Positions 15,965 through 39,542 of a stretch of 40,441 nt of DNA are shown piece by piece. This DNA comes from a virus. Position 1 is the stretch's first letter. The number at the start of each line of letters is the position of its first letter. The notes under the pieces were generated by a model. It did no database searches, had not been told where the DNA came from, and saw nothing but the letters and a program-made list of their open reading frames with translations. The stretch spans positions 1-40,441 of IMG/VR virus record IMGVR_UViG_3300031731_000008; one strand, written 5' to 3'. A program made the translations under genes and the position numbers.

Positions 15965-16330
15965 TCAGTACGAGTAGTTGCGGTGGTAGACCGCGCCGCC
16001 GCGCGCGAACGGGGTGCCCTTGCTGGTCCAGTAGAGGCCATCGCGGGAGCGGCTCACCTGGCGCTCGGGGGCGTTCTCCACGATCATGCTCGCGCGCTCC
16101 TCGTCCGTGTAGGTGTGCGACCAGACGGGGAACGGGCCATCGAATCGTGCGGGCTCGTGGCCGGTGGTCTTGTCCACGATCTGGAGCGGCTTCACCCAGA
16201 CCGTCTTGCCCGAGGGGCTGACGCGGGTGATGACGTAGGGGTACGAGTCCTGCGGGTAGCAGAGCGTCATGCCGTCCCCGACCTGGGGCTGGTAGTCGCG
16301 GGCTTCCTGGGTGCGGTCCTGGTCGTTCAT
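15965..16330 (-). CDS. hypothetical protein (121 aa)
   Basis: ATG 16330 (MNDQDRTQEARDYQ..) directly behind cassette P3. Confidence 0.65.
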   Translation of the reverse strand: MNDQDRTQEARDYQPQVGDGMTLCYPQDSYPYVITRVSPSGKTVWVKPLQIVDKTTGHEPARFDGPFPVWSHTYTDEERASMIVENAPERQVSRSRDGLYWTSKGTPFARGGAVYHRNYSY

Positions 16331-16388
16331 GGTTTCGGTCCTTCCGAATGGTGGGGGCGTCTCCCCCGTGTGGTTACACAGTAGCACG
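16331..16388 (-). promoter_or_regulatory. conserved early promoter/5'-leader cassette, copy P3
   Basis: minus: CGTGCTACTGTGTAACCACACGGGGGAGACGCCCCCACCATTCGGAAGGACCGAAACC-ATG. Confidence 0.6.
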
Positions 16389-18321: not shown

Positions 18322-19485
18322 TTACTCTCCCTTCTCCGCGGTGACGCGGAGACTCTCGACGGTGGTTGTGGTGCGGATGCGCTCCCGCTGCTTCTCCGTG
18401 AGGAGTTTCGCGTCGTATCCGGTGCGGGTGCTACGTGACAGAGTAGCACCATAACCGCCCTCGCGGAGGAGCACCTGGCGGCCGCTCTCCTGCCGCATGA
18501 TGCCCTTCAGGGTGGCGAGCGCCTCCTCCCGCTGGGTGACGGCGTTCTGGTACTCCGTGCGCTCCAGCACCGAGTCGGCCGCGGCGATGGTGGAGAGGGC
18601 CTCGCGGATCGCACCCTTGCGGGCCGTGACCTCCGGCGCGTCATCGAACTGGTCCTCGGTGTCCACGTAGGTCATCGGGGGCACGAGGTCGGCCTCATCC
18701 TGGAGCCAGGCGTTCGCGGCCTCGATCATCTTCAGGATGCGCTTCTCGTCGCGCTCGACCCAGATCCGCTCATGCCCGAGAATCTCCACGACGTTGCCCT
18801 GCTTGTCGCGCTTCACCTGGCGGTAGATGACGAGGACGCGCTCCGCCCCGGTGGTGAGCATCTGCCACTGGACCTGATCGAAGTAGTTCGCGGGGACGAC
18901 CGGCTTGCTCCGGGGCGTCTTCCGCCACGACTTCGAGCCCGTCTTGAACTCCGCGAGTTCGAGGGTGCATGAGCCGTCGTCCTGGAGGTCCACGTGCCGC
19001 CAGGCGTCGGGAGTGGAGCCGAACCGGTGATCCATCTCCCACACGACGAAGCCGTGAGTGAGGACGAACGGGCGCGTCTCGTGCGGGCCGTTCTTCTCGA
19101 CGTGCTCGTTCGCCTCCGCGAGGAGTTCCGGCTCGGCCAGGGTGCCGTAGTTCATCACCGTGAGGCTGAACCGCGAGAACACCGGGCGCTTGCCCTCCAT
19201 GCGCTCCCGCCACAGGTCCATCACCGAGGAGAACGGGTTCGTTCCCATCACGGTCGTCATGGCCGTCGCGGAGATGATGGAGCCCTGCGAGCGCACGCGC
19301 CGCCACTCCTCAATGTCGTCGGAGTGCGCGATGGTGAGGACGCCGGGAATGTCCCGGACCTCCAGCACCGTGTCAACGGCGGCCTCCGCCTCCACCAGCG
19401 CCGCATCGACCTCCTCCTGGGTGACGACGGCCTCGACGCTCTCGGCGCGCTCTACGGCCGCGCGGACCTCTGCGACCTCGCTCAT
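18322..19485 (-). CDS. YqaJ/RecE-like exonuclease (PD-(D/E)XK)
   Basis: 387 aa from ATG 19485; GSIISATAMTTVMGTNPFSSVMDLWRER..NYGTLAEPE..ELAEFKTGSK..YFDQVQWQMLTTG fits the YqaJ viral recombinase domain. Confidence 0.8.
   Translation of the reverse strand: MSEVAEVRAAVERAESVEAVVTQEEVDAALVEAEAAVDTVLEVRDIPGVLTIAHSDDIEEWRRVRSQGSIISATAMTTVMGTNPFSSVMDLWRERMEGKRPVFSRFSLTVMNYGTLAEPELLAEANEHVEKNGPHETRPFVLTHGFVVWEMDHRFGSTPDAWRHVDLQDDGSCTLELAEFKTGSKSWRKTPRSKPVVPANYFDQVQWQMLTTGAERVLVIYRQVKRDKQGNVVEILGHERIWVERDEKRILKMIEAANAWLQDEADLVPPMTYVDTEDQFDDAPEVTARKGAIREALSTIAAADSVLERTEYQNAVTQREEALATLKGIMRQESGRQVLLREGGYGATLSRSTRTGYDAKLLTEKQRERIRTTTTVESLRVTAEKGE
18427..18450 (-). promoter_or_regulatory. box-like palindrome inside the exonuclease gene (possible internal promoter/operator)
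   Basis: minus GGTGCTACTCTGTCACGTAGCACC: one mismatch to box GGTGCTACTGTGTCAC; arms GGTGCTAC/GTAGCACC are a perfect 8-bp inverted repeat; about 110 nt upstream of annealase ATG 18317. Confidence 0.3.
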
Positions 19486-19852: not shown

Positions 19853-20184
19853 CGGGCGACCTCGATAGTGAAGGTGAGGGCGGAGTTGGCTTCACGTGCG
19901 CTCGCGATCCACTCCTGAGCCTCGGTCCACGTCCATTCGAGGGGCTGGGTGAATGAGCCCGTGATCGGACCACCGGAGCCGTTCGGCCAGGTGCAGATGA
20001 TCCGGTAGAGACGGCGGGGGACCTCGGAGGCGCAGGTGGTGACCTCGCCCGATTCGCCGCGGAGGGTGACCATGCCGAGGAGGTCACCGTCGTGGACCTC
20101 GCGGATGGTGAACGGGTAGCCGTCGCGGTAGATGGGGAACGTCGTGATGCGATCCCGAGTGACGCGATCCTGGGTGTTGCTCAT
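19849..20184 (-). CDS. hypothetical protein (111 aa)
   Basis: ATG 20184 (MSNTQDRVTRDRITTF..) behind the cassette; the upstream part of the track ORF is non-coding. Confidence 0.65.
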   Translation of the reverse strand: MSNTQDRVTRDRITTFPIYRDGYPFTIREVHDGDLLGMVTLRGESGEVTTCASEVPRRLYRIICTWPNGSGGPITGSFTQPLEWTWTEAQEWIASAREANSALTFTIEVAR

Positions 20185-20284
20185 GTGCTCGGTCCTTCCG
20201 GCTGGGGTGCCCCTGGGGGCCTGTCCCTCCAGCATAGGTGCTAATGTGGCACGTGTCCAGTTCAATTCGAGAAAGGCAAGGGAC
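20185..20284. promoter_or_regulatory. divergent control region with quasi-palindromic box GGTGCTAATGTGGCAC (20237..20252)
   Basis: Minus: CGTGCCACATTAGCACCTATGCTGGAGGGACAGGCCCCCAGGGGCACCCCAGCCGGAAGGACCGAGCAC-ATG. Plus: TGCTAATGT, then about 38 nt to ATG 20285 of the XRE gene. Confidence 0.55.
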
Positions 20285-20641
20285 ATGACCCCAGCAGAGT
20301 TCAAGACGCTCCGAGAGGGCATGGGCCTGGCGGCCGAGGAAGTCGCCACCATGCTCGGCGTGACGCGCAAGACCGTGTTCGCCATGGAGTCCCCCACGCG
20401 GGCGCTCGACGTGCCAGAGGAGCACGCGGAGCGACTCCGAGAGTTCCACAAGGAGTTCCTGCGCGCCGTGTCGCGTGCAAAGCGCCGGAAGGTCCTCCCC
20501 CGGTTCACCGACGAGGAGCGGTTCCAGAAGGTCTACGGCGAGGGGCTCCCGCTCAGCGTCCAGGGCCCGCTCATCTACGCGGCGCAGGGCTTCCGCGCTG
20601 GCGAAACTGCGACCGTGGCACCCGTCGATTACGAGCGATGA
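20285..20641 (+). CDS. XRE/Cro-CI family helix-turn-helix protein
   Basis: 118 aa; LREGMGLAAEEVATMLGVTRKTVFAMES is a canonical HTH_XRE segment. Confidence 0.7.
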   Translation: MTPAEFKTLREGMGLAAEEVATMLGVTRKTVFAMESPTRALDVPEEHAERLREFHKEFLRAVSRAKRRKVLPRFTDEERFQKVYGEGLPLSVQGPLIYAAQGFRAGETATVAPVDYER

Positions 20642-20652
20642 GGGAACGGGAA

Positions 20653-20687
20653 AGGCCCCCGGCTGGAAGATTCCGAACCGGGGGCCT
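20653..20687 (+). terminator. hairpin after the XRE gene
   Basis: aggcccccgg / ccgggggcct, perfect 10-bp stem, 15-nt loop; no T-run. Confidence 0.4.
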
Positions 20688-20743
20688 ACGCTCCAGAGAT
20701 GCCCTGCCCTGGGTGCTTCACCACAACCACGAAGTGAGAACGC

Positions 20744-21478
20744 ATGAACGATAGCACGAGCGGATACACCACCGTTCCGAACTGGATGCTCGCCGCCGAG
20801 GACGTGACCCTGCACATGGTCGTCGTGTATGCCGCGCTCGGCACATGGACCGACCGGGAGGGCACGGCATGGCCCGCCATCCCAAAGATCGCGAAGCGGG
20901 CGAAGATCAGCGAGCGGAGCGCACGCCAGGCCCTCCGGGACCTCGAAGGGCTCGGGCTCGTGGAGACGCTGAGGAGGGCCGCGCCGGACGGCGGTCAGAC
21001 CTCGAACCTCTACCGCCTCCACACCACCGCGACCCCCCGGCAGGAGATGCAGGGGGGGGTGCAGGAGATGCAGGGGCCCCCTGCACGTGGTGCAGACGAA
21101 CAAGCACCACTAGAACAACCTCCTGCTAACGCAGGAGGAGAGAAGCGCGCACGCGCGACGAGAATCCCGGAGCCATTCATCGTCACGGCCGAGATGTGGG
21201 CCTGGTGCCACGAGAAGGGGTTCGACCTCCCATGGGCGAAGGAACAGACCGAGCGCTTCGTGGACTACTGGCGCGGCATCCCCGGCCAGCGGGGCACGAA
21301 ACTCGACTGGCCCGGCACGTGGCGGAACTGGCTCCGGCGCTCATGGGATGACCGGCGCGCACCCTCCGGCGCGTCCACGGCCCGCGAGACGCCCGACGAA
21401 CGGTTCCGCCGACTCATGGCCCAGGCGGAGGCGATGGAGACGCAGGCTGAGCCTGAGCGCCTGGCGGTCGAGGCGTGA
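20744..21478 (+). CDS. replication initiator / replisome organizer-like wHTH protein
   Basis: 244 aa; N-term wHTH (PKIAKRAKISERSARQALRDLEGLGLV); C-term FVDYWRGIPGQRGTKLDWPGTWRNWLRR motif common in phage replication organizers. Confidence 0.45.
   Translation: MNDSTSGYTTVPNWMLAAEDVTLHMVVVYAALGTWTDREGTAWPAIPKIAKRAKISERSARQALRDLEGLGLVETLRRAAPDGGQTSNLYRLHTTATPRQEMQGGVQEMQGPPARGADEQAPLEQPPANAGGEKRARATRIPEPFIVTAEMWAWCHEKGFDLPWAKEQTERFVDYWRGIPGQRGTKLDWPGTWRNWLRRSWDDRRAPSGASTARETPDERFRRLMAQAEAMETQAEPERLAVEA
21040..21076 (+). repeat. two 16-bp direct repeats at 21-bp spacing (iteron-like) inside the initiator gene
   Basis: gcaggagatgcagggg at 21040..21055 and 21061..21076, followed by near-palindrome tgcaggggccccctgca and further tgcag/ctgca copies up to ~21096. 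Confidence 0.5.
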
Positions 21479-21828
21479 GCCCCGCCGACGTGATCCGCCT
21501 GCTCGCCGTCATCGCCACGTTCGACAACCGGCGCGTGGAGGACTCCACCATCGCCGCATGGTCCTCCGTGTTCGATAGCACCCCGTGGACGTTCGACCAG
21601 TGCCGCGAGGCCGTCATCCGCCACTTCCGCGATTCGACGGACTACCTCCAGCCCGCGCACGTCATCCGAGGAGCCCGGATCGTCCGCGAGGAGGCCGAGC
21701 GCGAGGTCCGGCGTCACCGAGCCCTAAACCCGCTCCCGAGGGAGTACGGGGCCCCGAAGCCGGAGAACTTCGACGCCCTCGTGAGGCAGGCCGAGGAGGA
21801 GGCGCGATCAGCACGCTCCACGGGATAG
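21475..21828 (+). CDS. hypothetical protein (117 aa)
   Basis: GTG in a GTGA overlap with the initiator stop; track ORF. Confidence 0.6.
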   Translation: MSPADVIRLLAVIATFDNRRVEDSTIAAWSSVFDSTPWTFDQCREAVIRHFRDSTDYLQPAHVIRGARIVREEAEREVRRHRALNPLPREYGAPKPENFDALVRQAEEEARSARSTG

Positions 21829-21831
21829 ACT
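21826..21831 (+). promoter_or_regulatory. -10-like TAGACT upstream of ssb
   Basis: gggaTAGACTgtcacc...acggaggccattGTG; overlaps the stop codon of the preceding gene. Confidence 0.3.
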
Positions 21832-21867
21832 GTCACCACGAATCACCACTACGAAACGGAGGCCATT

Positions 21868-22365
21868 GTGGCCGGAGAAACTGTCATTACCGTCGTCGGG
21901 AACCTCACCGCCGACCCTGAACTGCGCTACACCCAGAACGGCCGCGCCGTCGCGAACATGACCATCGCGAGCACGCCGCGCACGTTCGACCGCCAGGCGA
22001 ACGAGTGGAAGGACGGCGAGGCGCTGTTCCTCCGCGCATCCGTCTGGCAGGAGTTCGCTGAGCACGTCGCCGGATCGCTCCACAAGGGCTCCCGCGTGAT
22101 CGCCCAGGGACGCCTCACCCAGCGCTCCTACCAGGACCGCGAGGGCAACAACCGCGTGAGCATCGAACTCGAAATCGACGCCATCGGTCCCGACCTCCGC
22201 TACGCGACCGCACAGGTGACGCGCGCCGCGAAGGGCCAGGGAGGGCAGGGCGCACCACGCCAGGCCCAGCAGGCCGTCACGGATGAGCCGTGGAGCACTC
22301 CCGGATCGTCCACCGAGGACGCCTGGAGCACGCCGGGATCGTTCGGAGACGACACCCCGTTCTGA
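21868..22365 (+). CDS. ssb: single-stranded DNA-binding protein
   Basis: 165 aa; [31 protein letters not shown]-fold start, G/Q-rich linker, acidic tail ending DDTPF. Confidence 0.9.
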
Positions 22366-22372
22366 CCGACAC

Positions 22373-22405
22373 GCGAGGGCGGGGTCCACGTGGCTCCGCC
22401 CTCGC
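22373..22405 (+). terminator. hairpin between ssb and rusA (attenuator/terminator)
   Basis: gcgagggcgg / ccgccctcgc, perfect 10-bp stem; the 13-nt loop itself contains ccacgtgg. Confidence 0.4.
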
Positions 22406-22423
22406 TCTGTATCTGGAGACACC

Positions 22424-22858
22424 ATGCGACTGTTCATCCCCGGCACCCCCGTCCAGCAGGGCTCACTCATCCCCCGCGTCATCTTCGTGAAGGGCCGACC
22501 TCGCGCCGTCCTCCACTCCCACAATTCCGAGGGCCTGAAGCGCTGGCGCAAGGCCGTGAGCGCCGCTGTCGCCGCCGAGATGGACGCGCTCGGCATGGAG
22601 GGACCCCTCGGGCCCTACGTCGCCATCTCGGCCGTGTTCCAGATGCCGAAGCCGAAGACGACGAAGTACCCCGACTATCCAGGAGGGACGCCCGACCTCG
22701 ACAAACTCCAGCGCGCCGTGGGGGACGCCCTCACCGCCTCCGGGATCGTCCAGGATGACGCCCGGATCGTCCGCTGGCACACCGACGAGACGTGGGCTGG
22801 GGGCCTCGGCTCACTCTCCGCCGAGCCCGGCCTGTGGCTGGAGGTCACCGACCGATGA
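22424..22858 (+). CDS. rusA: RusA-like Holliday junction resolvase
   Basis: 144 aa from ATG 22424; PDLDKLQRAVGDALTASGIVQDDARIV matches the RusA catalytic motif (DLDNL..K...DAL....DD..V). Confidence 0.8.
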   Translation: MRLFIPGTPVQQGSLIPRVIFVKGRPRAVLHSHNSEGLKRWRKAVSAAVAAEMDALGMEGPLGPYVAISAVFQMPKPKTTKYPDYPGGTPDLDKLQRAVGDALTASGIVQDDARIVRWHTDETWAGGLGSLSAEPGLWLEVTDR

Positions 22859-23112
22859 TCCTCCTGACTCCCGAGCAAGCCGCGGAGGAGTTCGGCATCG
22901 CGCGCCGCACGGTCGCCTACTGGGCCGAACACAACCTCATCCGCTCCCACGTCAGGGAAGACACGGAGCGGCCTCAGCGGGGCGGTCACCCCGGCTACAG
23001 GGTGGAGCGCGCGCAGGTGGCGGAACGGGTCAGGCAGATGCCGCGGCGCGGCGTGCGGCGCTCACCGTCGCCCGGCTCACCCGAGCCTCGTCCTGTACCT
23101 GATCCCACGTAG
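22855..23112 (+). CDS. MerR/excisionase-type HTH DNA-binding protein
   Basis: 85 aa from ATG 22855 (ATGA overlap); LLTPEQAAEEFGIARRTVAYWAEHNLI. The R/P-rich tail overlaps the convergent gene. Confidence 0.55.
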   Translation: MILLTPEQAAEEFGIARRTVAYWAEHNLIRSHVREDTERPQRGGHPGYRVERAQVAERVRQMPRRGVRRSPSPGSPEPRPVPDPT

Positions 23113-23254
23113 CGCCCTCATCGAGACGCCGGTTGATCGCGTCGTTCCGGCAGGACCTCCACCAGGCGAGGGCACCCTCCGCGCGCTCGACCTCATCGGC
23201 CAGTTCGGGGAGGGGCTTAGCCCGATCATCGAACGGGTGGAGGTCGGCTGTCAT
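23030..23254 (-). CDS. small HTH-like protein (74 aa), leaderless, opposite orientation to its neighbours
   Basis: ATG 23254 lies 7 nt after TAGACT; GATWDQVQDEARVSRATVSAARR resembles an HTH; balanced composition. Confidence 0.55.
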   Translation of the reverse strand: MTADLHPFDDRAKPLPELADEVERAEGALAWWRSCRNDAINRRLDEGATWDQVQDEARVSRATVSAARRAAASA

Positions 23255-23370
23255 GCGGGTCAGTCTACCCGCTGAACACGCCGTAGCCCGCCTGGGCTGG
23301 TGCTCACCCCGCCACGGGTGCTAGGTTGGCACATGTCACCCCAACGGGGGTGCGAATCGGAAGGACCGAC
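23255..23370. promoter_or_regulatory. divergent control region: box GGTGCTAGGTTGGCAC (23317..23332), leader cassette P7, and GGGTAGACT (23267..23262) for the leaderless minus gene
   Basis: Plus: GGTGCTAGGTTGGCACATGTCACCCCAACGGGGGTGCGAATCGGAAGGACCGAC-ATG. Minus: gcgggTAGACTgacccgcATG. Confidence 0.55.
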
Positions 23371-23592
23371 ATGCAGACCATCATCCCTAACGCGCAGGCC
23401 CGCGGCACGCTCGAATCGCTCGTGTCCCCGGCGTCACTCGCGGAGAATGCCGACGAACTCCTCGGGCACATTGCCGTCCGAGTGGATGCCATCGCCCCCG
23501 ACGTGATGGCCGCGTTCGCCCTCCTCGGCGCGACCCGCGTGGACATGCTCCGCCACCTAGCACACGAGGCTATCGAGGCGGCGTTCGAGTGA
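23371..23592 (+). CDS. hypothetical protein (73 aa)
   Basis: ATG 23371 (MQTIIPNAQARG..) directly behind cassette P7. Confidence 0.6.
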   Translation: MQTIIPNAQARGTLESLVSPASLAENADELLGHIAVRVDAIAPDVMAAFALLGATRVDMLRHLAHEAIEAAFE

Positions 23593-23816
23593 GCCGCCGG
23601 AGCCGGACCCCGATCTTCGACGCACTCGCCGCGCGCTACCGCGAGGGGCCCGCACCACGCGAGCGCTCGTGGGCTCTCGACGCCTACATGCGGGGATTCA
23701 CCTACGGGCTCGTGCTCCAGGACACACTCCCCCCGAAGCGTCAGCACGTGCTCACGCACTCGTCCCCCTGGGACGCCATCGACCACACTCCGAACAAGCA
23801 TGATCCATCACTCTGA
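23589..23816 (+). CDS. hypothetical protein (75 aa)
   Basis: GTG in a GTGA overlap; track ORF. Confidence 0.5.
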   Translation: MSRRSRTPIFDALAARYREGPAPRERSWALDAYMRGFTYGLVLQDTLPPKRQHVLTHSSPWDAIDHTPNKHDPSL

Positions 23817-23828
23817 AAGGCAAGCACC

Positions 23829-24122
23829 ATGACCGATGCAGTCAAGACCCTGAGCCGCGAGATTCGACGCGCGAAGGGCGTCAAGTCCGGGACCGTCGTC
23901 ACCTTCACCCGAACCATCGAGTTCGTGGAGGGCATCCGGCGCGACGAGCACGTGACCCGCACGTTCGACTACGCCGCGATCTTCGTCGGCGGCCGCTGGT
24001 TCTTCACCGGCAAGGGCGGACTCGGCCAGTCCGCGCTCACGAACCGCGAGTTCCTGGACCGCATGGCGGAGCCCGACATCTCCCGCGTCCGCGTGGCGAC
24101 CAACTTCGAGCGGGTGTCCTGA
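23829..24122 (+). CDS. hypothetical protein (97 aa)
   Basis: track ORF; SD-like aaagg upstream. Confidence 0.6.
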   Translation: MTDAVKTLSREIRRAKGVKSGTVVTFTRTIEFVEGIRRDEHVTRTFDYAAIFVGGRWFFTGKGGLGQSALTNREFLDRMAEPDISRVRVATNFERVS

Positions 24123-24754
24123 TGGCCCGCGTCCACCGCGTCCAGCGGTCCAACAAGGAACACACCTGCGGGCACTCCCCGACGCACGTGATCCCGAAGG
24201 GCGACCCGTACCTCTGGGCGAAGCCCGGATTCCGCACCCGCACCCCGAAGGTCCGTTGCGTGGAGCACCCGTTCCGCCCCTCCGAACTCGCCACCGGCCT
24301 GAACGCCGAGCCGATGGCGGCGCAGGAGGACTTCAACGCCACGCTGGGCACGCTGGAGGCCCACGACTATGACGGCCTGACCGCCGCCGTGGATGAGTTC
24401 CGCGAGGCGCTGGAGGCGTACCGGGACGCCCGGCAGGAGGCGCTCGACGCCTGGGAGAACGGCAACAGCCAGTTCGAGGAGTGGCTGGAGGAGGCCGAGG
24501 AGGCCCTGAGCGCTCTGGAGAATCTGGAGGTCGAGGAGTGGGACGAGGAGGAGCCGCTCAACGAGACGACGGAGCCCGAGCCCGACGCCGCCGACTTCGA
24601 GGAGGAGTCCGACTACGACGCGGCCGTGGAGCGCTGGCAGGAGGCGCAGGACGACGCCGAATCCGAGTGGGATGACTGGAACTCGCGCCGCGACCAGCAC
24701 TGGGACGACCAGATCAGCGAAGCCTCCGAGGCATCCGCGAGCGTGTCACTGTGA
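24122..24754 (+). CDS. hypothetical protein: basic Cys/His N-domain plus very acidic Trp-rich C-domain
   Basis: 210 aa; N-term ..HTCGHSPTHVIPKGDPYLWAKPG..VRCVEHPF; the C-terminal ~140 aa are dominated by D/E with EEW/DDW repeats. Confidence 0.6.
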   Translation: MARVHRVQRSNKEHTCGHSPTHVIPKGDPYLWAKPGFRTRTPKVRCVEHPFRPSELATGLNAEPMAAQEDFNATLGTLEAHDYDGLTAAVDEFREALEAYRDARQEALDAWENGNSQFEEWLEEAEEALSALENLEVEEWDEEEPLNETTEPEPDAADFEEESDYDAAVERWQEAQDDAESEWDDWNSRRDQHWDDQISEASEASASVSL

Positions 24755-25281
24755 CCGGGGGCGCGCTCATGTACGGCGGCACGGAGGGCTCCAGCGGGTC
24801 CAGCGCTTCACACGAGCGCGCCACCCGAGAGGCACGCGACGGCACGGCCACGGCCCGCCAGACCGTCCTCCTGGACTCCCTCGCGGAGGCGGGGGCGGAG
24901 GGGCTCACGTGGCGGGAACTGGGGACCGCCGCGGGGCTCCACCATGGGCAGGTTACTGGGGGCCTGTCCAACCTCCACAAGGCGGGCATGATCGCCCGTC
25001 TGACGCTGAAGCGGGGGCGGTGCTCCGTCTACGTGCTACCCGAGCACGTGGAGGGACGCGCCACCGTCGCGCAGGGGCGTCGGGATGCCGAGACGAGTCC
25101 GGTAGGGTTCCCCTTCCGGCAGGGTGCTCATCTCGTGCTGGGGCCTGACGTTCACGCGACCATCGACGGCGAGTTCATCGTCTGGAATGGTCGCCGCTAT
25201 CACCCCGTCGATGTGCACGACTCCTCGCGGGTCGAGCCGATGGATGACCAGGGGCGACGGCCACTGTTCGACCTCGATTGA
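24751..25281 (+). CDS. winged-helix (MarR-like) DNA-binding protein candidate
   Basis: 176 aa; LTWRELGTAAGLHHGQVTGGLSNLHKAGMIARL resembles a wHTH recognition unit; start GTG 24751 or ATG 24769. Confidence 0.35.
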   Translation: MTGGALMYGGTEGSSGSSASHERATREARDGTATARQTVLLDSLAEAGAEGLTWRELGTAAGLHHGQVTGGLSNLHKAGMIARLTLKRGRCSVYVLPEHVEGRATVAQGRRDAETSPVGFPFRQGAHLVLGPDVHATIDGEFIVWNGRRYHPVDVHDSSRVEPMDDQGRRPLFDLD

Positions 25282-25297
25282 CGGGGCTCTGGGGCTG

Positions 25298-25339
25298 AGG
25301 GTCCGTGCGTTGTGGGGATGACGCACGGGCCCTCTTTTT
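25298..25339 (+). terminator. rho-independent terminator
   Basis: agggtccgtgcgt / acgcacgggccct, 13-bp stem (one G-U), followed by cTTTTT. Confidence 0.75.
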
Positions 25340-25364
25340 CGTGATTGGACACCCCACGGCCAGG

Positions 25365-25425
25365 GGTGCTACTGTGTAACCACGCGGGGCCCACACGGGG
25401 CCCTCCACCGGAAGGACCGGACACC
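25365..25425 (+). promoter_or_regulatory. conserved early promoter/5'-leader cassette, copy P1
   Basis: GGTGCTACTGTGTAACCACGCGGGGCCCACACGGGGCCCTCCACCGGAAGGACCGGACACC-ATG; possible -35 TTGGAC at 25344..25349. Confidence 0.6.
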
Positions 25426-25668
25426 ATGGCCACCATTCAGCGCAAGACGCTCACCCTCACCATCGACCTCGAAGGTGCCGCATTCAACGACGGATTCGGG
25501 GACCTCGAAATCGGGAACCTTCTCCGGGAAGCGGCCGCGAAGATCGAGGGAGGCGCACTCGCGGAGAACGGGGCGCGCATCGCCACCGGGCGCGGCATCG
25601 ACCTCATCGACTCCAACGGCAACCGCGTCGGATACGCGGGCGTCACCCTGAAGCGGACCCGAGTCTGA
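25426..25668 (+). CDS. hypothetical protein (80 aa)
   Basis: ATG 25426 (MATIQRKTLTLTIDLEG..) behind P1. Confidence 0.6.
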   Translation: MATIQRKTLTLTIDLEGAAFNDGFGDLEIGNLLREAAAKIEGGALAENGARIATGRGIDLIDSNGNRVGYAGVTLKRTRV

Positions 25669-25708
25669 ACACGCCGTGCGCCCGAGGGATTGTGACCCAC
25701 GGGCGCAC

Positions 25709-25754
25709 GGTGCTACTGTGACACCACAACCACCACCCGAAAGGATCGGACCCC
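25709..25754 (+). promoter_or_regulatory. conserved early promoter/5'-leader cassette, copy P2 (short variant)
   Basis: GGTGCTACTGTGACACCACAACCACCACCCGAAAGGATCGGACCCC-ATG; lacks the GC hairpin; SD-loop stem is CCGA/TCGG. Confidence 0.55.
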
Positions 25755-26024
25755 ATGAACTCCATCAGCCTCCGCAAGGGCGAGACGCCCAACGAGACGA
25801 CCCTCACCCTCTCCGGCATCACGATCTGGTTCTCATACGAGACGCCCGTCGCCTTCACCTTCCGAGGCAAGCGCGTCGTCCGCGTGAACGACTGGAGCAC
25901 CACCACCGGCAAGCACCTGAACCGCATCGACGGCGGCGGGAGCGCACAGGCCGACCGCATCCCCGGCGACGAGTTCACGAGCCTCCTGGAGCACGCCCTG
26001 GACCTCCTCGGGGTGAACGCATGA
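25755..26024 (+). CDS. hypothetical protein (89 aa)
   Basis: track ORF behind P2. Confidence 0.65.
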   Translation: MNSISLRKGETPNETTLTLSGITIWFSYETPVAFTFRGKRVVRVNDWSTTTGKHLNRIDGGGSAQADRIPGDEFTSLLEHALDLLGVNA

Positions 26025-26350
26025 CCCGCACGGACTCCTGGGAGGGGGCCATCGTCCGGGGCCGCGACCGCCGCAAGGGGCGAGTCGTCGCAGACCACCG
26101 GCCCATGCTCCGCCGGGAACGCTCCAGCGCCCTCGTGGTCCACTGGGACGATGACCAGACGAGCACCGTCGCCCGCCACGCCGTGACCATGCTGAAGCCG
26201 CCGCTCCACTTCGCAGAGGTCGTCACCCCGCTCCGGGAGGAGGGCCCGCTGGAGAACTTCGGGCCCCTCTGGGCGTTCATCATCTGCGGGACGTGCGCGG
26301 CCGTCAGCCTCGCCGGTATCGCGTTCCTGATGGCGATGGACGCGCTCTGA
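26021..26350 (+). CDS. hypothetical protein with C-terminal TM segment (109 aa)
   Basis: ATG 26021 in an ATGA overlap; LWAFIICGTCAAVSLAGIAFLMAM near the C-term. Confidence 0.55.
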   Translation: MTRTDSWEGAIVRGRDRRKGRVVADHRPMLRRERSSALVVHWDDDQTSTVARHAVTMLKPPLHFAEVVTPLREEGPLENFGPLWAFIICGTCAAVSLAGIAFLMAMDAL

Positions 26351-26748
26351 TGTGCGGCGCTCCAGGGTGCGTCCTCCACGCCCATCACGACGAGGACCAC
26401 ACGGACGGCATCGTTCGCTGGCCGAAGTCCACCACGAAGCGGGGCACCACGAACCGCAACGAGCGAGGGAACGCCGCCACGCGCCGACGCCGGAAACAGC
26501 GCCTCGTGGATGAGTTCGGAGATGGGGAGACGTGCCCCTGCTACCGGTGCGACCGCGCGCTCAGCATCTCCATGGTGGAGGCCGACCGGAAGGTGCCCGG
26601 CATCCTCGGCGGCACGTACCGCTGGGAGAATCTCCGCCCCGTCTGTGGTGACTGCAACAAGATCACCGGCAACGCCGTCTCGAAGATGCTCCGGGACAAG
26701 GTGCGCAAACCGACCATCATCCGACTACACCGTGAAGGGCTCATTTGA
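26350..26748 (+). CDS. HNH endonuclease
   Basis: 132 aa from ATG 26350 (TGATG overlap); CPCYRCDRAL..EADRKVP..GGTYRWENLRPVCGDCN. Confidence 0.65.
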   Translation: MCGAPGCVLHAHHDEDHTDGIVRWPKSTTKRGTTNRNERGNAATRRRRKQRLVDEFGDGETCPCYRCDRALSISMVEADRKVPGILGGTYRWENLRPVCGDCNKITGNAVSKMLRDKVRKPTIIRLHREGLI

Positions 26749-26750
26749 CC

Positions 26751-27077
26751 ATGGCCACCATTGCAGACCCCCAGACCATCACCGACGCCGCCGAAGCGAT
26801 CCGGGCCCTGAACCGCCGCCTCCACGAGCGCGATGGTGACGACTACAAGGCCAGCCCCGAGGACCTCGCCGCGGCCGCGCTCAGCGTTATCCCGGACGCG
26901 ATCCTGGAGGAGGCCCCCCTGAACGCCCTCCACCTGGAGCGCCTCGACAACGACTATGCCCACTTCGGAGCCCCCGGCGGCATGTCCCTCGCGCTCCACC
27001 GCGGCGACTGGGTGGAGCGTGGCCGCCCCTCCCGCATCGTCATCTCCGTGCTCGACCTGGAGCCCTTGCGCGTCTGA
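26751..27077 (+). CDS. hypothetical protein (108 aa)
   Basis: track ORF; ATG 26751 preferred over TTG 26745. Confidence 0.6.
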   Translation: MATIADPQTITDAAEAIRALNRRLHERDGDDYKASPEDLAAAALSVIPDAILEEAPLNALHLERLDNDYAHFGAPGGMSLALHRGDWVERGRPSRIVISVLDLEPLRV

Positions 27078-27113
27078 AGCGCTGTGCGCCCGCCTGCGGG
27101 CCTAAAACGAGTC

Positions 27114-27143
27114 AACCCCCCTCCCTTGCCTGGGAGGGGGGTT
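27114..27143. terminator. bidirectional terminator where the early (+) and late/lysis (-) arms converge
   Basis: aacccccctccc / gggaggggggtt, perfect 12-bp stem, 6-nt loop, TTT after it on the plus strand. Confidence 0.75.
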
Positions 27144-27179
27144 TCGTCGTTCCTGCGCCCGCGTGGCGCGGATGGGGGC

Positions 27180-27662
27180 CTATTCCGGCTGGGCATCCCT
27201 GTACTGTTCGCGGGTGAGGTCACTGGGGAGCACGCCGTGACGTGCCGCGGCCGCCTCCACGGAGGCCAGGTCGGAGCGTGCGGCCGCCGTCGTCTGATTC
27301 GACACGGTGAAGATGGCCAGGAGGCTCGACAGCGAGGAGAGGCCGAGCGAGAGCGCAGTCAGGAGCGCGGTGGACACGTCCTCGGAGAACACGCCGAGGA
27401 GGACCAGAGCCGGGGCCACCGTCGCCGCGAGCGCGTAGATCGCACCACGGAGGACGCCCACCGCGTCACGCCAGTTCGCGTTCACGACCGAGAGGCCGGA
27501 GGCGACGAACTGGAGGATCGCGCCGATGATGATGAGCCCCTGCTCGACCTGATCCTGCGAGGCCAGGCCAGCGAGGATCACGAGAGGGGCGAGGGAGCCG
27601 AACCACACCTGGATCGCCTGGCGGCGTTCCGGGGTGAACCATGCGGCGAGTCGAGAGAACAT
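27180..27662 (-). CDS. putative holin / four-TM membrane protein
   Basis: 160 aa; four hydrophobic helices; strong SD (taggaggtcagcATG); last gene of the lysis cassette. Confidence 0.5.
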   Translation of the reverse strand: MFSRLAAWFTPERRQAIQVWFGSLAPLVILAGLASQDQVEQGLIIIGAILQFVASGLSVVNANWRDAVGVLRGAIYALAATVAPALVLLGVFSEDVSTALLTALSLGLSSLSSLLAIFTVSNQTTAAARSDLASVEAAAARHGVLPSDLTREQYRDAQPE

Positions 27663-27671
27663 GCTGACCTC

Positions 27672-28400
27672 CTACGGGGTCGGTGTCGGTGTTGGGGTGA
27701 GCGTGCAGAGGTACGCAGGCTGGGACGTAGGGACGCCCGTTTCCGGGTCCTCCACGAGCACGGTTGTCGCGGTGCCAGTGTAGCCGTCAGGGCATGCGGG
27801 GCCAGCGGGACCTTGCGGGCCGGTAGCGCCCGTCTGACCGGTGGGGCCCTGAGGACCTGCGGGGCCTGCCGAGCCCTGCTCGCCGTCCTGCCCGTCCTTC
27901 CCATCCGCTCCGGGCTCACCAGGAGCGCCATCGACGCCGGGCGCACCGGGGGCCCCTGGGTCGCCGGGCTCGCCATCGTCGCCGGGGGTGCCGGGCTCAC
28001 CTGCGGGGCCGGAGGGGCCGCGCTCCGGGATGAGTACCTCCGGGTCGGTGCCGTCCGGGTCCTCACCGAGCGCGAGCAGTTGGTCGTAGAGTTCCTGCGC
28101 GTTCGCCTGGGATGCCACGAGGTCATCGGTGAGTTCGGAGATGGTGAGGCGCTGTTCCTCCACGACCGAATTCGAGCGGGCGTTCCGGTCCACGAGGTTC
28201 ACCAGGAACCACGCGCCGAGCCCGAGGAGGAGCATCACGAGGATCGCCGTCGTGACGGTGAACACCCAGCCGAGACGCTTCGGAGGCTCCTCGATGGGGG
28301 GCAGGACTATCGCCCCGGCCGCCGTCTGCGATTCGCGCATCTCCTGGAGAATCTCCGCGGGGTCGCGGGGCTCCAGATCGGCGTTCTGGTCATCGTTCAC
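27672..28400 (-). CDS. membrane-anchored collagen-like repeat protein (242 aa)
   Basis: GTG 28400 (GTGA overlap, SD ggaggcacaca). N-terminal [30 protein letters not shown], a coiled-coil stretch, 25 uninterrupted G-X-Y triplets, and a C-term with 2 Cys and a (TP)5 tail. Confidence 0.7.
27795..28019 (-). repeat. collagen-like (GXY)25 coding repeat
   Basis: [75 protein letters not shown]. Confidence 0.85.
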
Positions 28401-28771
28401 TGTGTGCCTCCAAGGCCAGCCTGAGCGGCAAGGATACCCACGACTATCGCCGCGGCGGGAGACGCGAAGATGAGGAGCCATTGCCACTGAGTCGCGCGGC
28501 GCACCTTCTCGCGCTCGTTCCGCTCTGCGATCTGAGCCTGAAGGGCCGTAGTCTCGGCCGCCACTCGCGCCTGGTGCTCGGCGGCGAGGTCCTTCTGGAG
28601 CGTCGAGATTTCACGGCCCTGCCCCTCCAGGCGTCCATCCACGCGGCGGCGCTCATCGGAGAACGTGTCGCGGGTCACGAGGTTATCGAACCGCTGGTTC
28701 CACTCGACACGCATCTGCGAGAGGTCCTCGCGGAGGATCTGAAACTGGGAGGGGGTCATGCCGTCCGTCAC
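28397..28771 (-). CDS. tail-anchored coiled-coil membrane protein (lysis-cassette component)
   Basis: 124 aa from GTG 28771 (AGGAG 9 nt upstream), or 120 aa from ATG 28759; helical charged N-domain; C-terminal [23 protein letters not shown]. Confidence 0.55.
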
Positions 28772-28826
28772 GGTGTGAAACTCCTGGGGATGAAGTGAGG
28801 GAGGGCCGCCGGGTGAGCCCGCGAAG

Positions 28827-28832
28827 ACTCTA
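28827..28832 (-). promoter_or_regulatory. -10-like GGGTAGAGT between the endolysin and the membrane-protein genes
   Basis: minus gccgggTAGAGTcttcgcggg in the 79-nt gap. Confidence 0.3.
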
Positions 28833-28850
28833 CCCGGCGACCCTCTCGGC

Positions 28851-29654
28851 TCACGACTTGATCTGCGGCACGTCCTCGTCGGCAATGTCAACGAAGACCT
28901 TGCCCATCGCGGCGGCACGCGCGGCGACCGTGGCCTTGATCGCGTCGTAGTGGCCACGGGTCACGGGACCGGATGCCTCCAGGCCGAAGCCCTTCGCCAC
29001 ACCGTTCGCGTAGGCCACGCTGAACCAGCCGAAGGGGGAGAACGTCCCCGCCTCGAAGTCAACGATCGCGCCCGACCGCTTCGAGTCGGACTTGTCGTCG
29101 GTGTGAATGACTCCTGTGGACATGTTGCGCTTCTTTCTCTTAGGGTTTGCCGGGGTGGAGGTTCCGCCCCCAGCGGGCTTGCCAGGGACGGCGTTGAAGA
29201 TGTTCAGCACGTCGTAGTGCCATGCCTCACCGAAGCCGAAGCCAGAGGCGACGAGCCCGTACTTCCAGGCGTTCGCCCGGAGCCAGTTCGAGCGGGCCGA
29301 GCCCATCGTCGCGATCCCGCCATCCGAGCCGGTGTCGTAGAGGTCCACGGCCGCCTTCGAGCCCTGAATCTCATGGTTCGACGTGCCCGGCACGGCGACC
29401 GTACCAGCCGACGAGATGCGATACCACAGGCGGCCGTTCCACCAGCGGGTGTCATAGACGCGGCGACCGTTCACGTCCCCGGCGGTGACGTACCGTTCCA
29501 GGAAGATGCGCTTCTGGTCCTCGTAGGTGCGGATCGCGGAACGGACCCTCACCCAGACGCCGAACAGGCTGTGCATGTCGGCGCTCAGCCGGTCGATGCA
29601 GTAGGCCATCCACGGGGTGACGCGCTGGCCGTCGCGCTCAACGAACGTGACCAT
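28851..29654 (-). CDS. endolysin, peptidase M15 (VanY / D-Ala-D-Ala carboxypeptidase-like) with C-terminal domain
   Basis: 267 aa; RSAIRTYEDQKRIF, GTSNHEIQGSKAAVDL and GEAWHYD fit LAS/M15 metallopeptidase motifs; basic linker KRKKR, then a second domain. Confidence 0.75.
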   Translation of the reverse strand: MVTFVERDGQRVTPWMAYCIDRLSADMHSLFGVWVRVRSAIRTYEDQKRIFLERYVTAGDVNGRRVYDTRWWNGRLWYRISSAGTVAVPGTSNHEIQGSKAAVDLYDTGSDGGIATMGSARSNWLRANAWKYGLVASGFGFGEAWHYDVLNIFNAVPGKPAGGGTSTPANPKRKKRNMSTGVIHTDDKSDSKRSGAIVDFEAGTFSPFGWFSVAYANGVAKGFGLEASGPVTRGHYDAIKATVAARAAAMGKVFVDIADEDVPQIKS

Positions 29655-29902
29655 CAGGCACCGTCCTCGCCGCGCACGTCATCGCCGTCCGAGACATAGC
29701 ATGTCGCGTCGAGAGGGACGCCCGGCACGAGGACCACCTGGCCGTCGTCTCCGAGCCCCCAGGCGTCCGCGATGCCATCCCCATCAATGTCCACGTCGAG
29801 CGGCAGGAGAGGCCGCTCAGCGCCCGCACGCGCCTGGTCCTCCAGGAGCCCGCGGATCACCGCCTCGTCCTCCTCGGTGAGCGTGTTCTCGTCATTCGCC
29901 AT
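29654..29902 (-). CDS. hypothetical acidic protein (82 aa)
   Basis: ATG 29902 (MANDENTLTEEDEAV..); 1-nt overlap with the endolysin start. Confidence 0.5.
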   Translation of the reverse strand: MANDENTLTEEDEAVIRGLLEDQARAGAERPLLPLDVDIDGDGIADAWGLGDDGQVVLVPGVPLDATCYVSDGDDVRGEDGA

Positions 29903-30077
29903 CGCTGGCCTCCTCGATCTGTTCGACTTCGTAGGTGCCGTCCTTCCACGGGCCGCGGACCATGCCGCGCGCGCGCTTCTCGGCGTTCTCCGGGGTGCGC
30001 GCACGGACGCGCATCTCCGTGCCCGAGTTGCCGCTCGGGCTCGTGATCTTCACCCGGTAGTCGTGAATGTCAGACAT
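29892..30077 (-). CDS. hypothetical protein (61 aa)
   Basis: ATG 30077 (MSDIHDYRVKITSPSG..), 8-nt overlap with the upstream stop. Confidence 0.5.
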   Translation of the reverse strand: MSDIHDYRVKITSPSGNSGTEMRVRARTPENAEKRARGMVRGPWKDGTYEVEQIEEASDGE

Positions 30078-30891
30078 CGATGGGCTCCTCCCATGCTGTG
30101 CCGGTGCTGATCTGGGGACCGGCCTTGACCCAGGCCGAGCCATCCGATACCTGCGGCCCGGCCCCGATCCAGTTCGTGCCGTCCGAGACGAAGACTCCCG
30201 CCTCCGTCTCCATCATCGTGAACGCCGACCAGGGGCCATAGTCGATCCCGTTCTTCGCCCGATAGCGGACTCGGTACTTCGTGGAGGGGGAGAGTTCGAC
30301 CTTCCCGGCCGTGGTCTGGTTTGAGGAGCCCGACTGCCATCCGCCCACCACGTCATCCGGCCCGGCGACCTCGTCATAGACGAAAATGTCGTAGGTGATG
30401 ATGGCGGACCCGCCGTTGTCGGACGGTGCCGTGATCTTGAACGCGATTGAGTCCGGCTCCGCGCTGACGAACGTCGGCGCGGCTGGCTGAGACGGCGGCT
30501 TGGGGATGCGGGGGGCGCTCCCAGGGTCCGCGTAGGCCGTGCCGGAGCCGATCCCATCGTGGACGTTCCCGTTGATGGAGAACGCCATGTTCTGCTGATC
30601 GATGAGGTAGCCCTGGGCGTTGTGCGGCTTCGTGAAGTACCCCGAGCGGAGCACGATGTACGAGTCGTAGGCGTTCCCCGAGGGGACGGTGAACGTGCCG
30701 CTCGCGGACGCGAATCCGCCGACCGACCAGTAGCAGGTGCCGTTCGTCCACTGGCCGCCACCGTTGCCGTAATAGCGAATCTCCCAGTACCACGTGGAGT
30801 AATTCCCCGCCTGGTTGTACGACACGTAATAGACGTTGCCGTAGACCTCACACGGCCCGTAGCCGGAGAGTGGAGCGCGTGCCGATCCCAT
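30070..30891 (-). CDS. minor tail protein / receptor-binding candidate with FN3-like segment
   Basis: 273 aa; Y/W/G-rich beta N-domain; PSQPAAPTFVSAEPDSIAFKITAPSDNGGSAIITYDI..YRVRYRAKN resembles fibronectin type III. Confidence 0.45.
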   Translation of the reverse strand: MGSARAPLSGYGPCEVYGNVYYVSYNQAGNYSTWYWEIRYYGNGGGQWTNGTCYWSVGGFASASGTFTVPSGNAYDSYIVLRSGYFTKPHNAQGYLIDQQNMAFSINGNVHDGIGSGTAYADPGSAPRIPKPPSQPAAPTFVSAEPDSIAFKITAPSDNGGSAIITYDIFVYDEVAGPDDVVGGWQSGSSNQTTAGKVELSPSTKYRVRYRAKNGIDYGPWSAFTMMETEAGVFVSDGTNWIGAGPQVSDGSAWVKAGPQISTGTAWEEPIDV

Positions 30892-30903
30892 GGTCTACCC
30901 CGC

Positions 30904-31800
30904 TCAGTCCGGGGCCGTGCCGGGAATCCAGACACGGCCCTTCTTGTGCGCCGGGGCGGTCGGCTGGACGAAGATGCCGAGCGCCTGAAGGGCCGCCTTC
31001 ACGTTGCTCTCGCCCGTGCCTCCACGAGCGACCGCGAGGACGCCCGACGTAATGTCGGCCGCGGAGTGGTTGTGCGCCTCCGGGGGGAACTCGGTCGGCT
31101 TGCCGGTCGTCACCTGCGCCCACGTGTGAGTGTGCGTCGTGGCGGCCGCGCCGAGGTTCGTGCGCGCCTGCGTGGCTGACGTGGCCCCGGTGCCGCCCTT
31201 CGCGACCGCGAGGGTGCCGGACATGTTCGCCAGGGTGGTGAGTTCCTGCCATGCCCCAGCGATCCACAGTTCGATGGACTTCTGAGTCGTGTCCACACCG
31301 AGCGCGACCTCCTCGGAGGGCGTCGGGCGCTTCGCCGTCTCGTAGGGGTACGCGCGGAGGCCGGTGGAGGGCTTCAGGGCGTTGATGTGCCCCGAGGCCA
31401 CAGCGGCCGTTCCTGCCGCCACCGTGACGGTTCCGATGAGGAGTTCCCAGGTCGTCTCGTTCTGGGTGAGAGAGGGGAGCGAGCCGCCGGACGTGTTCGC
31501 CGTGCCCGCCTTGATCGCCGCGGTGATCGTGTTCGCCGTCTGGTCGAGACGGAGGATCACGGCGTCGAGCCGGGTCCCCGATGCGGGAGCCGCGCCCACC
31601 GTGAGAGTCTTCGCCGTCGTGTTCTCGTAGTAGACGCCGCGCACGAGCCCGGAGCCAATCCCAATCACGACCTGCATGCCGGTCCCAGGGGTGAGGGCGA
31701 GGCCCTCATTGATCCCCGAGAACGCCATCGCTCGCGCCCACTTCGAGAACTGCGTCTCGTTCGTCTCCACGCCGTAGAACGGCCAGGATGCCTCAGCCAT
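30904..31800 (-). CDS. minor tail protein / tail fibre
   Basis: 298 aa; repeated GGTGA(T/E)S..A..NLG and ..PTEFPPEAHNHSAADITSG fibre-type motifs. Confidence 0.55.
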   Translation of the reverse strand: MAEASWPFYGVETNETQFSKWARAMAFSGINEGLALTPGTGMQVVIGIGSGLVRGVYYENTTAKTLTVGAAPASGTRLDAVILRLDQTANTITAAIKAGTANTSGGSLPSLTQNETTWELLIGTVTVAAGTAAVASGHINALKPSTGLRAYPYETAKRPTPSEEVALGVDTTQKSIELWIAGAWQELTTLANMSGTLAVAKGGTGATSATQARTNLGAAATTHTHTWAQVTTGKPTEFPPEAHNHSAADITSGVLAVARGGTGESNVKAALQALGIFVQPTAPAHKKGRVWIPGTAPD

Positions 31801-32068
31801 GTGTTGTCTCCTCCTCAGTCACGGGCCATTCTGCCACGGGGTCAGGGTCAGCCGGTGACGGCATCCCGACCATCTCCCCGGCCTCATCTAGGCTCAGGGT
31901 CATCACGCCCCCATCGGGGAACGTCACATCGACCGGGTAGCCTGCGGCGAGCGCCTCCTGGATCACCTGCTCGACATAGGCCGAATACGGTGCGAGTTGC
32001 TCATCCAGGCGACGGGCAGGGTCGAAGTCGGGATCGAACTCCTGCACGCCCATTACGCGGATCATCAT
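31793..32068 (-). CDS. hypothetical protein (91 aa)
   Basis: ATG 32068 in an ATGA overlap with the Tal stop; the rest of track ORF 31793..32818 is wrong-frame. Confidence 0.55.
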   Translation of the reverse strand: MMIRVMGVQEFDPDFDPARRLDEQLAPYSAYVEQVIQEALAAGYPVDVTFPDGGVMTLSLDEAGEMVGMPSPADPDPVAEWPVTEEETTHG

Positions 32069-37840: not shown

Positions 37841-37855
37841 GCGCGAGGGCTCCTA

Positions 37856-39541: not shown

Positions 39542-39542
39542 C

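Follow-up and report, generated by a model that had tools for sequence, protein, structure and literature searches.

The window analysed here (the whole 40,441-nucleotide stretch of IMG/VR record IMGVR_UViG_3300031731_000008, with a GC content of 69%) is, judged by comparison with sequenced isolates, a complete Microbacterium phage genome in reverse-complemented and circularly permuted form, with an identity of ~85% to Gingerbug. Its relatives are the Microbacterium foliorum phages Gingerbug (ON970592), DelaGarza (MT889371), and Lesiram (PP978869), to which it is 82–85% identical at the nucleotide level over an 8-kb segment (window 20000–28000), and nearly all Gingerbug proteins map onto it. 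Structural genes occupy positions 1–9200 and 27100–40441 on the minus strand, and an early and replication region with transcription in both directions lies at ~9.3–27 kb. Within this early region, at 12–26 kb and behind promoter motifs, we found seven copies of a cassette (P1–P5, P6′, and P7) whose Shine-Dalgarno (SD) core, AAGGA, sits in the predicted loop of a short RNA hairpin; this SD hairpin is the subject of the present analysis.

A sequence-only reading of this genome had listed seven stem-AAGGA-stem palindromes, each with AAGGA in a 5-nucleotide (nt) loop closed by a stem of 3–5 bp, and all seven were recovered at the positions it gave and with that geometry. On the plus strand, these are CCGG-AAGGA-CCGG of P1 (25408–25420, with the loop at 25412–25416 and the start codon ATG at 25426), CCGA-AAGGA-TCGG of P2 (25737–25749; ATG 25755), and TCGG-AAGGA-CCGA of P7 (23357–23369; ATG 23371). 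The minus strand holds CGG-AAGGA-CCG of P6′ (20200–20190; ATG 20184), TTCGG-AAGGA-CCGAA of P3 (16348–16334; ATG 16330), TGGG-AAGGA-CCCA of P4 (14673–14661; ATG 14656), and TCGG-AAGGA-CCGA of P5 (12614–12602; ATG 12597). In each of the seven cassettes the ATG follows AAGGA by 5–9 nt and starts an open reading frame (ORF) that has a homolog or a syntenic counterpart among the genes annotated in the relatives.

AAGGA occurs 43 times on the two strands of the window. At least three flanking Watson-Crick pairs accompany eight of these occurrences, seven of which are start-proximal. In unrelated high-GC sequences (the Microbacterium phages MenE and Lyell, and one viral contig that is likewise no relative), only 2 of 147 AAGGA occurrences carried a stem, and on these background rates we rejected chance as the origin of the palindromes. 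The eighth palindrome of the window (CTCG-AAGGA-CGAG, 15707–15719, minus strand) lies within a coding region, has no start codon at SD distance—the nearest ATG is ~22 nt downstream—and no copy of it was seen at the matching position of the Gingerbug homolog; it is at chance level. The hairpin is absent from MenE and Lyell, and we therefore discarded the idea that it is a trait common to other Microbacterium phage clusters. Neither is it a general habit of SD sequences in this genome: hairpins with the SD in the loop were predicted for a fraction of 0.16–0.17 of genes (cassettes included) versus 0.12–0.16 in controls, that is, non-cassette genes show them at control frequency.

Covariation of the SD hairpin

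We sampled a family of four genomes (the window and the three isolates), one IMG/VR contig (L004), and four high-GC metagenome fragments (L008, L011, L012, and L013) that had been retrieved with the promoter 18-mer GTGCTACTGTGTAACCAC, with the SD region left unconstrained. The contig and all four fragments displayed the same succession of a GC-rich hairpin, stem-AAGGA-stem, and ATG; two low-GC matches to the 18-mer were due to chance and lacked hairpins. Beyond this family, 185,579 species genomes of bacteria and archaea held no match to the 18-mer, the matches of the 16-mer TAGCACCTATGCTGGA in viral and bacterial genomes were all due to chance apart from the IMG/VR contig, a scan of IMG/VR with the exonuclease protein led to one unrelated locus only, and BLAST with a cassette returned the three close relatives and nothing else.

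Orthologous cassettes already reveal how the stem changes. The P1 stem is identical in Gingerbug and is altered in a compensatory manner in L013 (CGGG/CCCG). For P2, CCGA/TCGG in the window stands against TCCGA/TCGGA in DelaGarza and Lesiram. TTCGG/CCGAA of P3—a 5-bp stem found in the window only—is replaced by CCGG/CCGG in the relatives, so that pair 4 is U-A in the one case and C-G in the other, and P4 reads TGGG/CCCA in the window, TCTGG/CCAGA in DelaGarza, and CTGG/CCAG in Lesiram. The P7 hairpin is kept in three relatives, the fourth pair of P6′ is missing in all four genomes, and L004 together with the metagenome fragments contributed the additional stems CGGG/CCCG, GGGG/CCCC, and CTGAG/CTCAG. 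These orthologous groups alone account for at least six independent double substitutions.

We then scored covariation on 26 distinct 21-nt segments. The AAGGA loop was invariant in all of them. Numbered outward from the loop, pair 1 was G-C in 24 segments and A-U in two; pair 2 was G-C in 25 and A-U in one; pair 3 was C-G in 16, G-C in eight, and U-A in two; and pair 4 was C-G in 14, U-A in nine, A-U and G-C in one each, and unpaired in one. A fifth pair was present in 4 of the 26 segments only and is hence not conserved. Across pairs 1–4, 103 of 104 cells were paired, all five scored pairs had changed on both sides, and neither one-sided changes nor G-U pairs occurred among the scored cells. 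The covariation score was 0.523 as compared to 0.166 ± 0.029 in shuffles, with none of 500 shuffles reaching it, though the family is small and, as its sequences are kin to each other, these statistics overstate independence. Sliding the 3′ partner by one column in either direction lowered pairing from 82% to ~41–43%, and in RNAalifold, run on 17 full leaders, the SD hairpin was the sole consensus helix.

The first alignment had been chosen for stems of at least 3 bp. To counter this selection bias, we resampled leaders by promoter only, requiring the regular expression TGCTANNNT followed by 10–50 arbitrary nucleotides, AAGGA, another 2–12 nucleotides, and ATG, and making no use of the stem. 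From nine related sequences, 30 of 31 leaders obtained this way had four to five Watson-Crick pairs flanking the loop; the sole exception, a P7-type leader at position 944 of L013 (tAGG/CCCa), bore one A-C mismatch. Selection bias was thereby rejected as the source of the stem signal. The sequence-only reading had held that the stem covaries in a compensatory way, as a selected RNA structure would, and had proposed a larger set of homologous leaders as the place to check; the 26 segments, the shuffles, the promoter-only leaders, and the RNAalifold helix all bear this out.

Since the stem has changed only by paired mutations, the hairpin is, on this comparative evidence, under selection. The cassettes are clearly paralogous and most copies share the core CGGAAGGACCG, as would be expected if they were recent duplicates of one promoter and ribosome-binding module, palindromic by accident and with a functionless stem. 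Covariation contradicts this neutral account, to which we give hardly any credence: pairing has been preserved through at least six to eight double substitutions of independent origin (G-C to A-U in pairs 1 and 2, C-G to G-C or U-A in pair 3, and C-G to U-A in pair 4), with only one uncompensated change in the inner pairs, and the sequence just outside the stem varies freely.

We also weighed whether the palindrome might act in DNA, as the site of a dimeric DNA-binding protein or as a recombination site for cassette shuffling. The strict Watson-Crick pairing, without any G-T equivalents in 104 cells, would suit such a role, as would the location of the cassettes at mosaic junctions and the several helix-turn-helix (HTH) proteins encoded nearby. 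Yet the half-sites are 3–5 bp long and covary instead of being conserved, the opposite of what protein recognition predicts; the AAGGA center is asymmetric; and operators do not typically lie ~30–45 bp past the –10 element. The element is always found on the sense strand and at SD distance from the ATG, and this fixed placement fits an RNA better than a DNA reading. We therefore consider a DNA-level role highly improbable.

Organization of the cassettes

The order of elements is the same throughout: an extended –10 promoter (TGcTACTGT and close variants), a GC-rich 5′ hairpin, a C/A-rich linker, the SD hairpin, a G-poor spacer, and the ATG, with six to seven copies per genome. In the window, the extended –10 element TGCTACTGT occurs at P1 (25367–25375, plus strand; promoter function is predicted from the consensus), P2 (25711–25719, plus), P3 (16378–16386, minus), and P4 (14706–14714, minus). 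P1 has a –35-like TGGACA 18 nt upstream of it. P5 carries TGCTACAGT (12650–12658, minus) and P7 carries TGCTAGGTT (23319–23327, plus), the latter being TGCTACTGT in DelaGarza and Lesiram, and P6′ has a sigma-70-type promoter, TGGACA-17-TATGCT (20231–20259, minus). The predicted leader begins ~7 nt after the –10 element.

The 5′ hairpins, with folding energies of –8 to –17 kcal/mol, are missing in P2 only; their sequence varies among copies and the fold is kept. The P1 representative (25384–25406, plus; –14.7 kcal/mol) has a different stem sequence in L008, L011, L012, and L013, yet folds in all of them. The others lie at 23334–23354 (P7, plus) and, on the minus strand, at 20209–20220 (P6′), 16353–16367 (P3), 14679–14694 (P4), and 12616–12642 (P5, with the loop AGGGA in the window). 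The P5 hairpin reads GGGG-AGGGA-CCCC (12623–12637) and so adds another pentaloop of the form A(N)GGA, located 13 nt ahead of the SD hairpin; this is probably incidental because the loop differs in relatives (AGGCA, AGCA).

Downstream of the SD hairpin, the spacer consists of 58% C, 32% A, 7% G, and 2% T, and, being G-poor, it leaves the SD as the only place with unpaired G residues. Among 36 hairpin-bearing leaders, all on the sense strand, the distance from AAGGA to ATG was 5–10 nt with a mode of 8 (8 nt in 19 and 9 nt in eight leaders), and the hairpin ended 1–6 nt before the ATG. The hairpin is found only at the first genes behind promoter motifs; internal genes with AAGGA or other SDs lack the stem. 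Conversely, every intergenic promoter motif in five genomes is followed by the hairpin except P6, the promoter of an XRE-type HTH gene, which has a plain GAAAGG as its SD.

This tight coupling to promoters is also what a role in transcription would entail, either as a nut/boxB-like antitermination site or as a pause hairpin holding RNA polymerase at the start codon for ribosome loading. Lambda boxB consists of a 5-bp stem with a purine-rich pentaloop, which the SD hairpin resembles in size and shape; the SD hairpin lies 30–46 nt downstream of every early promoter, and the operons are separated by terminator-like hairpins. Hairpin-stabilized pauses occur ~10–12 nt past the hairpin and, as the SD hairpin ends ~4–6 nt before the ATG, the expected pause position would be at or just after the start codon. 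However, boxB has a GNRA-like loop (GAAAA or GAAGA) and, as is normal for antitermination sites, no fixed link to a start codon, whereas the cassette loop starts with A, is exactly complementary to the anti-SD, stands at SD distance from the ATG, and is the sole SD of these genes. No boxA-like conserved motif was visible in the leader alignment and no N-like protein was identified, although no systematic search for either was made. We regard an action in transcription as quite unlikely.

The genes behind the cassettes are exchanged while the cassettes stay. At the syntenic P3 cassette, the ORF is unrelated among the window (15968–16330, minus), Gingerbug/DelaGarza, and Lesiram; the cargo genes of the relatives lie at 32718–32927 in L001 (Gingerbug), 32254–32481 in L002, and 32230–32610 in L003. 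The P4 gene (14309–14656, minus) has had its N-terminus replaced, the protein starting with a different and shorter N-terminus in the window, and the P1 gene is missing from DelaGarza and Lesiram. From these comparisons, the cassettes mark mosaic junctions and behave as portable modules of promoter, leader, and ribosome-binding site. In such a setting, with the cassette staying and the downstream ORF being swapped, a self-insulated ribosome-binding site would be useful.

The SD hairpins also bear on gene annotation. Two annotated Gingerbug starts, at 34196 and 36388, fall in the loop of the 5′ hairpin or in the promoter. In the window, the ATG further upstream (14685–14687) is shifted out of the reading frame by an additional C, and the ORF that starts at ATG 12597 has no earlier start codon. 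The true starts are therefore the ATGs after the SD hairpin, which corrects gene starts in related phage records.

Further features adjoin individual cassettes. Directly upstream of promoter P1 is a strong intrinsic terminator with a 17-bp stem and TTTTT (25297–25334, plus), and a second GC-rich hairpin (~25672–25708, plus) overlaps the –35 region of P2. With this terminator upstream and the P2 promoter downstream, the 80-amino-acid P1 gene forms an isolated unit. At 20231–20259, divergent promoters overlap: the –10 element of P6 (TGCTAATGT, 20239–20247, plus) lies inside the spacer of P6′ (minus). The pair adjoins the gene of the 118-amino-acid XRE-type HTH protein, which is 97% identical to its Gingerbug homolog and the most conserved protein in that comparison; from its layout, the arrangement looks like a genetic switch.

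Two other promoter-like motifs were noted. The first, cggTAGACT with an ATG 6–7 nt later, is conserved in relatives and occurs at 7778 and 23267 of the window (both minus), at 1036, 16972, and 25614 of L001, at 1648 and 25087 of L002, and at 1624 and 25059 of L003. Its spacing suggests leaderless transcripts for the first gene of the structural operon and for a small HTH gene. The second is an inverted repeat, TGCTAC-TCTGTCAC-GTAGCA, with a promoter-like TGCTACTCT, located in the 3′-terminal part of the exonuclease gene, immediately ahead of the gene that follows (~18429–18448, minus). It is kept even in distant relatives (30413 in L001, 29927 in L002, 29903 in L003, 8949 in L004, and 309 in L011) and could be an internal promoter or an operator.

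Energetics and proposed mode of action

In a folding model, the isolated SD hairpins have energies of –1.1 to –5.3 kcal/mol. Pairing with the 3′ tail of 16S rRNA yields –3.8 kcal/mol for AAGGA, –8.2 for GGAAGGA, and –8.7 for a GGAGG SD. When whole leaders were folded, the hairpin was part of the minimum-energy structure of P1, P3, and P5, and its probability spanned 0.2–0.98, so thermodynamics alone is not decisive. Across 37 leaders, opening AAGGA required 0.40 kcal/mol in the native sequence and 2.37 with a non-complementary 3′ arm, and the introduction of random compensatory stems brought this energy back to 0.75 (Wilcoxon p = 8e-10). In pairs 1 and 2, the 5′ nucleotide is without exception a purine (G or A), able to pair with U and C of the 16S tail, and from pair 3 outward either orientation is taken. 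Taken together, the energetics and this orientation of the 5′ purines lead to a two-step model, in which the loop would nucleate pairing and the stem would open afterwards.

From these data we infer a sequence of events that extends from the start of transcription over folding in vivo to an effect on translation, with a role for the 5′ hairpin as well. The host sigma-A RNA polymerase would initiate at the extended –10 promoter (TGcTACTGT) and transcribe a leader of 30–46 nt, in which the GC-rich 5′ hairpin—probably an mRNA stabilizer—would fold first. The 4-bp mini-hairpin would form next, its 5-nt loop being the SD core AAGGA, and the C/A-rich, G-poor spacer would lead to the ATG 8–9 nt after the loop. 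By pairing together, the stem arms would keep the SD and its G-rich 5′ flank safe from capture by the C-rich leader or by the downstream coding sequence, and the first cistron would thus keep an accessible SD in any context. Upon binding of the 30S subunit, the loop would nucleate pairing with the 3′ end of 16S rRNA (UCCUU); the stem would then open, and the two purines of its 5′ arm would lengthen the duplex to 7 bp (GGAAGGA or GAAAGGA).

Whether the hairpin is a cis-acting insulator of this kind, displaying the SD and letting the cassette work with any cargo gene in a C-rich leader at 69% GC, we judge to be evenly poised, and such display in cis, with the SD kept exposed whatever gene follows, is the most likely reading of the element. 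The folding energies lead us to favor an insulated display of a modest SD over an enhancer, a poor description given that the gain from extended pairing is roughly offset by the cost of the stem. Several points weigh against display in cis. In full-length folds of the P4 and P6′ leaders, the probability of the hairpin is as low as 0.2–0.26. The hairpin costs 1–5 kcal/mol, so it does not strengthen the SD, and a simple flank rich in C and A would leave the SD open as well, such that insulation alone leaves the need for a stem unexplained. The absence of any G-U pair is unusual for an RNA helix. Finally, the loop is invariant, even though the SDs of other genes in these phages vary (GGAGG, AGGAG, GAAAGG), a constancy in excess of what pairing to rRNA strictly needs.

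The same constancy is among the features that would be expected if the hairpin were the operator of a phage- or host-encoded RNA-binding protein, be it a translational repressor or activator or an endoribonuclease, the main rival reading, which we consider doubtful. Such a factor would recognize a short stem that is closed by G-C and capped by the AAGGA pentaloop, would bring every early operon under joint control, for instance in early-gene shut-off, and would have analogs in the GGA-loop sites of CsrA/RsmA, the MS2 coat-protein operator, and T4 RegA/RegB. An invariant loop, inner pairs (1 and 2) of near-invariant orientation, and a free outer stem form a pattern typical of protein-bound hairpins; cassettes use AAGGA exclusively, and, being limited to early operons, the element would define a regulon. 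The shape fits the CsrA consensus of a GGA in the loop of a hairpin of at most 4 bp overlapping the SD (PMC7652899), and binding of a factor is also suspected for the start-associated sequences (SAS) of Cluster K phages (PMC3203893).

On the other hand, no CsrA homolog was found in the six-frame ORFs of the window (phmmer --max, best E = 0.52), and none of the 88 phage records with CsrA homologs is an actinophage, which led us to reject a phage-encoded CsrA. A Pfam scan of the eight cassette-associated proteins detected no RNA-binding domain, the matches being DUF2786 and a weak HTH hit only. Moreover, the invariance of the loop and the purine orientation of pairs 1 and 2 are also explained by complementarity to 16S rRNA. 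That a dedicated and hitherto unrecognized RNA-binding protein, be it a translational regulator or a nuclease, uses the AAGGA pentaloop hairpin as its RNA operator in an actinobacterial phage–host system, and in this way switches all early operons together, is in our estimate unlikely.

Either outcome would be of consequence. If the hairpin insulates, it would be a natural counterpart of the context-independent ribosome-binding parts of synthetic biology, useful for expression in high-GC Actinobacteria. If it binds a factor, it would point to post-transcriptional control in bacteria that, to our knowledge, generally lack CsrA and Hfq.

Comparison with known elements

Rfam covariance models gave no match at the gathering threshold—the sole sub-threshold match (E = 0.31) lay on a terminator at 25216–25338—and we rejected a known RNA family on this ground. 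With lambda nut boxB, the SD hairpin shares a length of ~13–15 nt, a purine-rich pentaloop, and transcription just downstream of early promoters; instead of a GNRA-like pentaloop on a 5-bp stem, however, every cassette loop is AAGGA, the SD itself. With the sites of CsrA/RsmA, it shares the GGA in a short hairpin loop overlapping the SD, here as an AAGGA pentaloop on a stem of 3–5 bp (PMC7652899). Unlike CsrA targets, which have paired sites, cassettes bear a single site per leader; their flanks do not fit the CsrA motif RUACARGGAUGU, and by the phmmer search and the 88 phage records described above the phage has no detectable CsrA-family protein.

At the level of the whole cassette, there is an analogy with the promoter-early stem-loop (PeSL) cassettes of T4-type phages, mobile regulatory cassettes (Arbiol et al. 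2010, PMC2839356; Comeau et al. 2014, PMC4122927). Both are small repeated units of a strong sigma-70-like early promoter and a stem-loop, scattered among small non-essential early genes at gene-swap junctions between close relatives; the likeness is one of analogy only, without any sequence relationship. In PeSL cassettes the stem-loop is a terminator without an SD, whereas the present cassette runs through a structured leader to the SD hairpin and the start codon.

Among elements described so far, the closest is the SAS, with its extended form with an upstream module (ESAS), of Cluster K mycobacteriophages. The SAS is a 13-mer, GGGATAGGAGCCC, with a 7-nt center and outer GGG/CCC symmetry (Pope et al. 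2011, PMC3203893), and its function was still called unknown in papers of 2024–2025 (Adephagia, PMC11373665; Yasnaya_Polyana, PMC12699233). SAS (GGG-ATAGGAG-CCC) and the cassette hairpin are both short repeats that hold an SD core within outer symmetry, lie a few nucleotides upstream of mostly ATG starts, and are conserved before genes of different families. Like SAS, which are found 3–9 bp upstream of mainly ATG starts in one orientation, the hairpins of the 36 leaders occupy this position, and the cassettes, too, occur only at non-structural genes that have wide gaps ahead of them, often with a promoter-bearing repeat further upstream. ESAS and cassettes also have in common a preceding conserved module with a SigA-like promoter and an inverted repeat, although in the cassettes this repeat is a transcribed GC-rich hairpin and in ESAS a 17-bp repeat overlapping the promoter.

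The two are nevertheless not the same element. When the window was searched for the SAS consensus with up to two mismatches, three matches were obtained, none of them at a cassette and two not adjoining a start codon; as the 13-bp consensus is missing at the cassettes, we rejected the cassette hairpin as a Cluster K SAS. The SAS is near-invariant, and where it does vary, the outer symmetry is mostly lost: Anaya has 12 perfect copies out of 15, its three variants being unpaired, and a single compensated case (CGG..CCG) appears among the entries available from the 2025 supplement (PMC12699233). Cassette stems covary, such that the conserved G1 and C10–13 of the SAS flanks have no equivalent in them, and the loop measures 5 nt (AAGGA) as opposed to a 7-nt center. 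What appears to be new in the present alignments, relative to the sequence-conserved flanks of SAS, is therefore a 5-nt AAGGA loop on a covarying stem. The same logic, in which a short stem frames an SD core, could lie behind the Cluster K SAS, to which the hairpin hypothesis can be applied as a testable idea.

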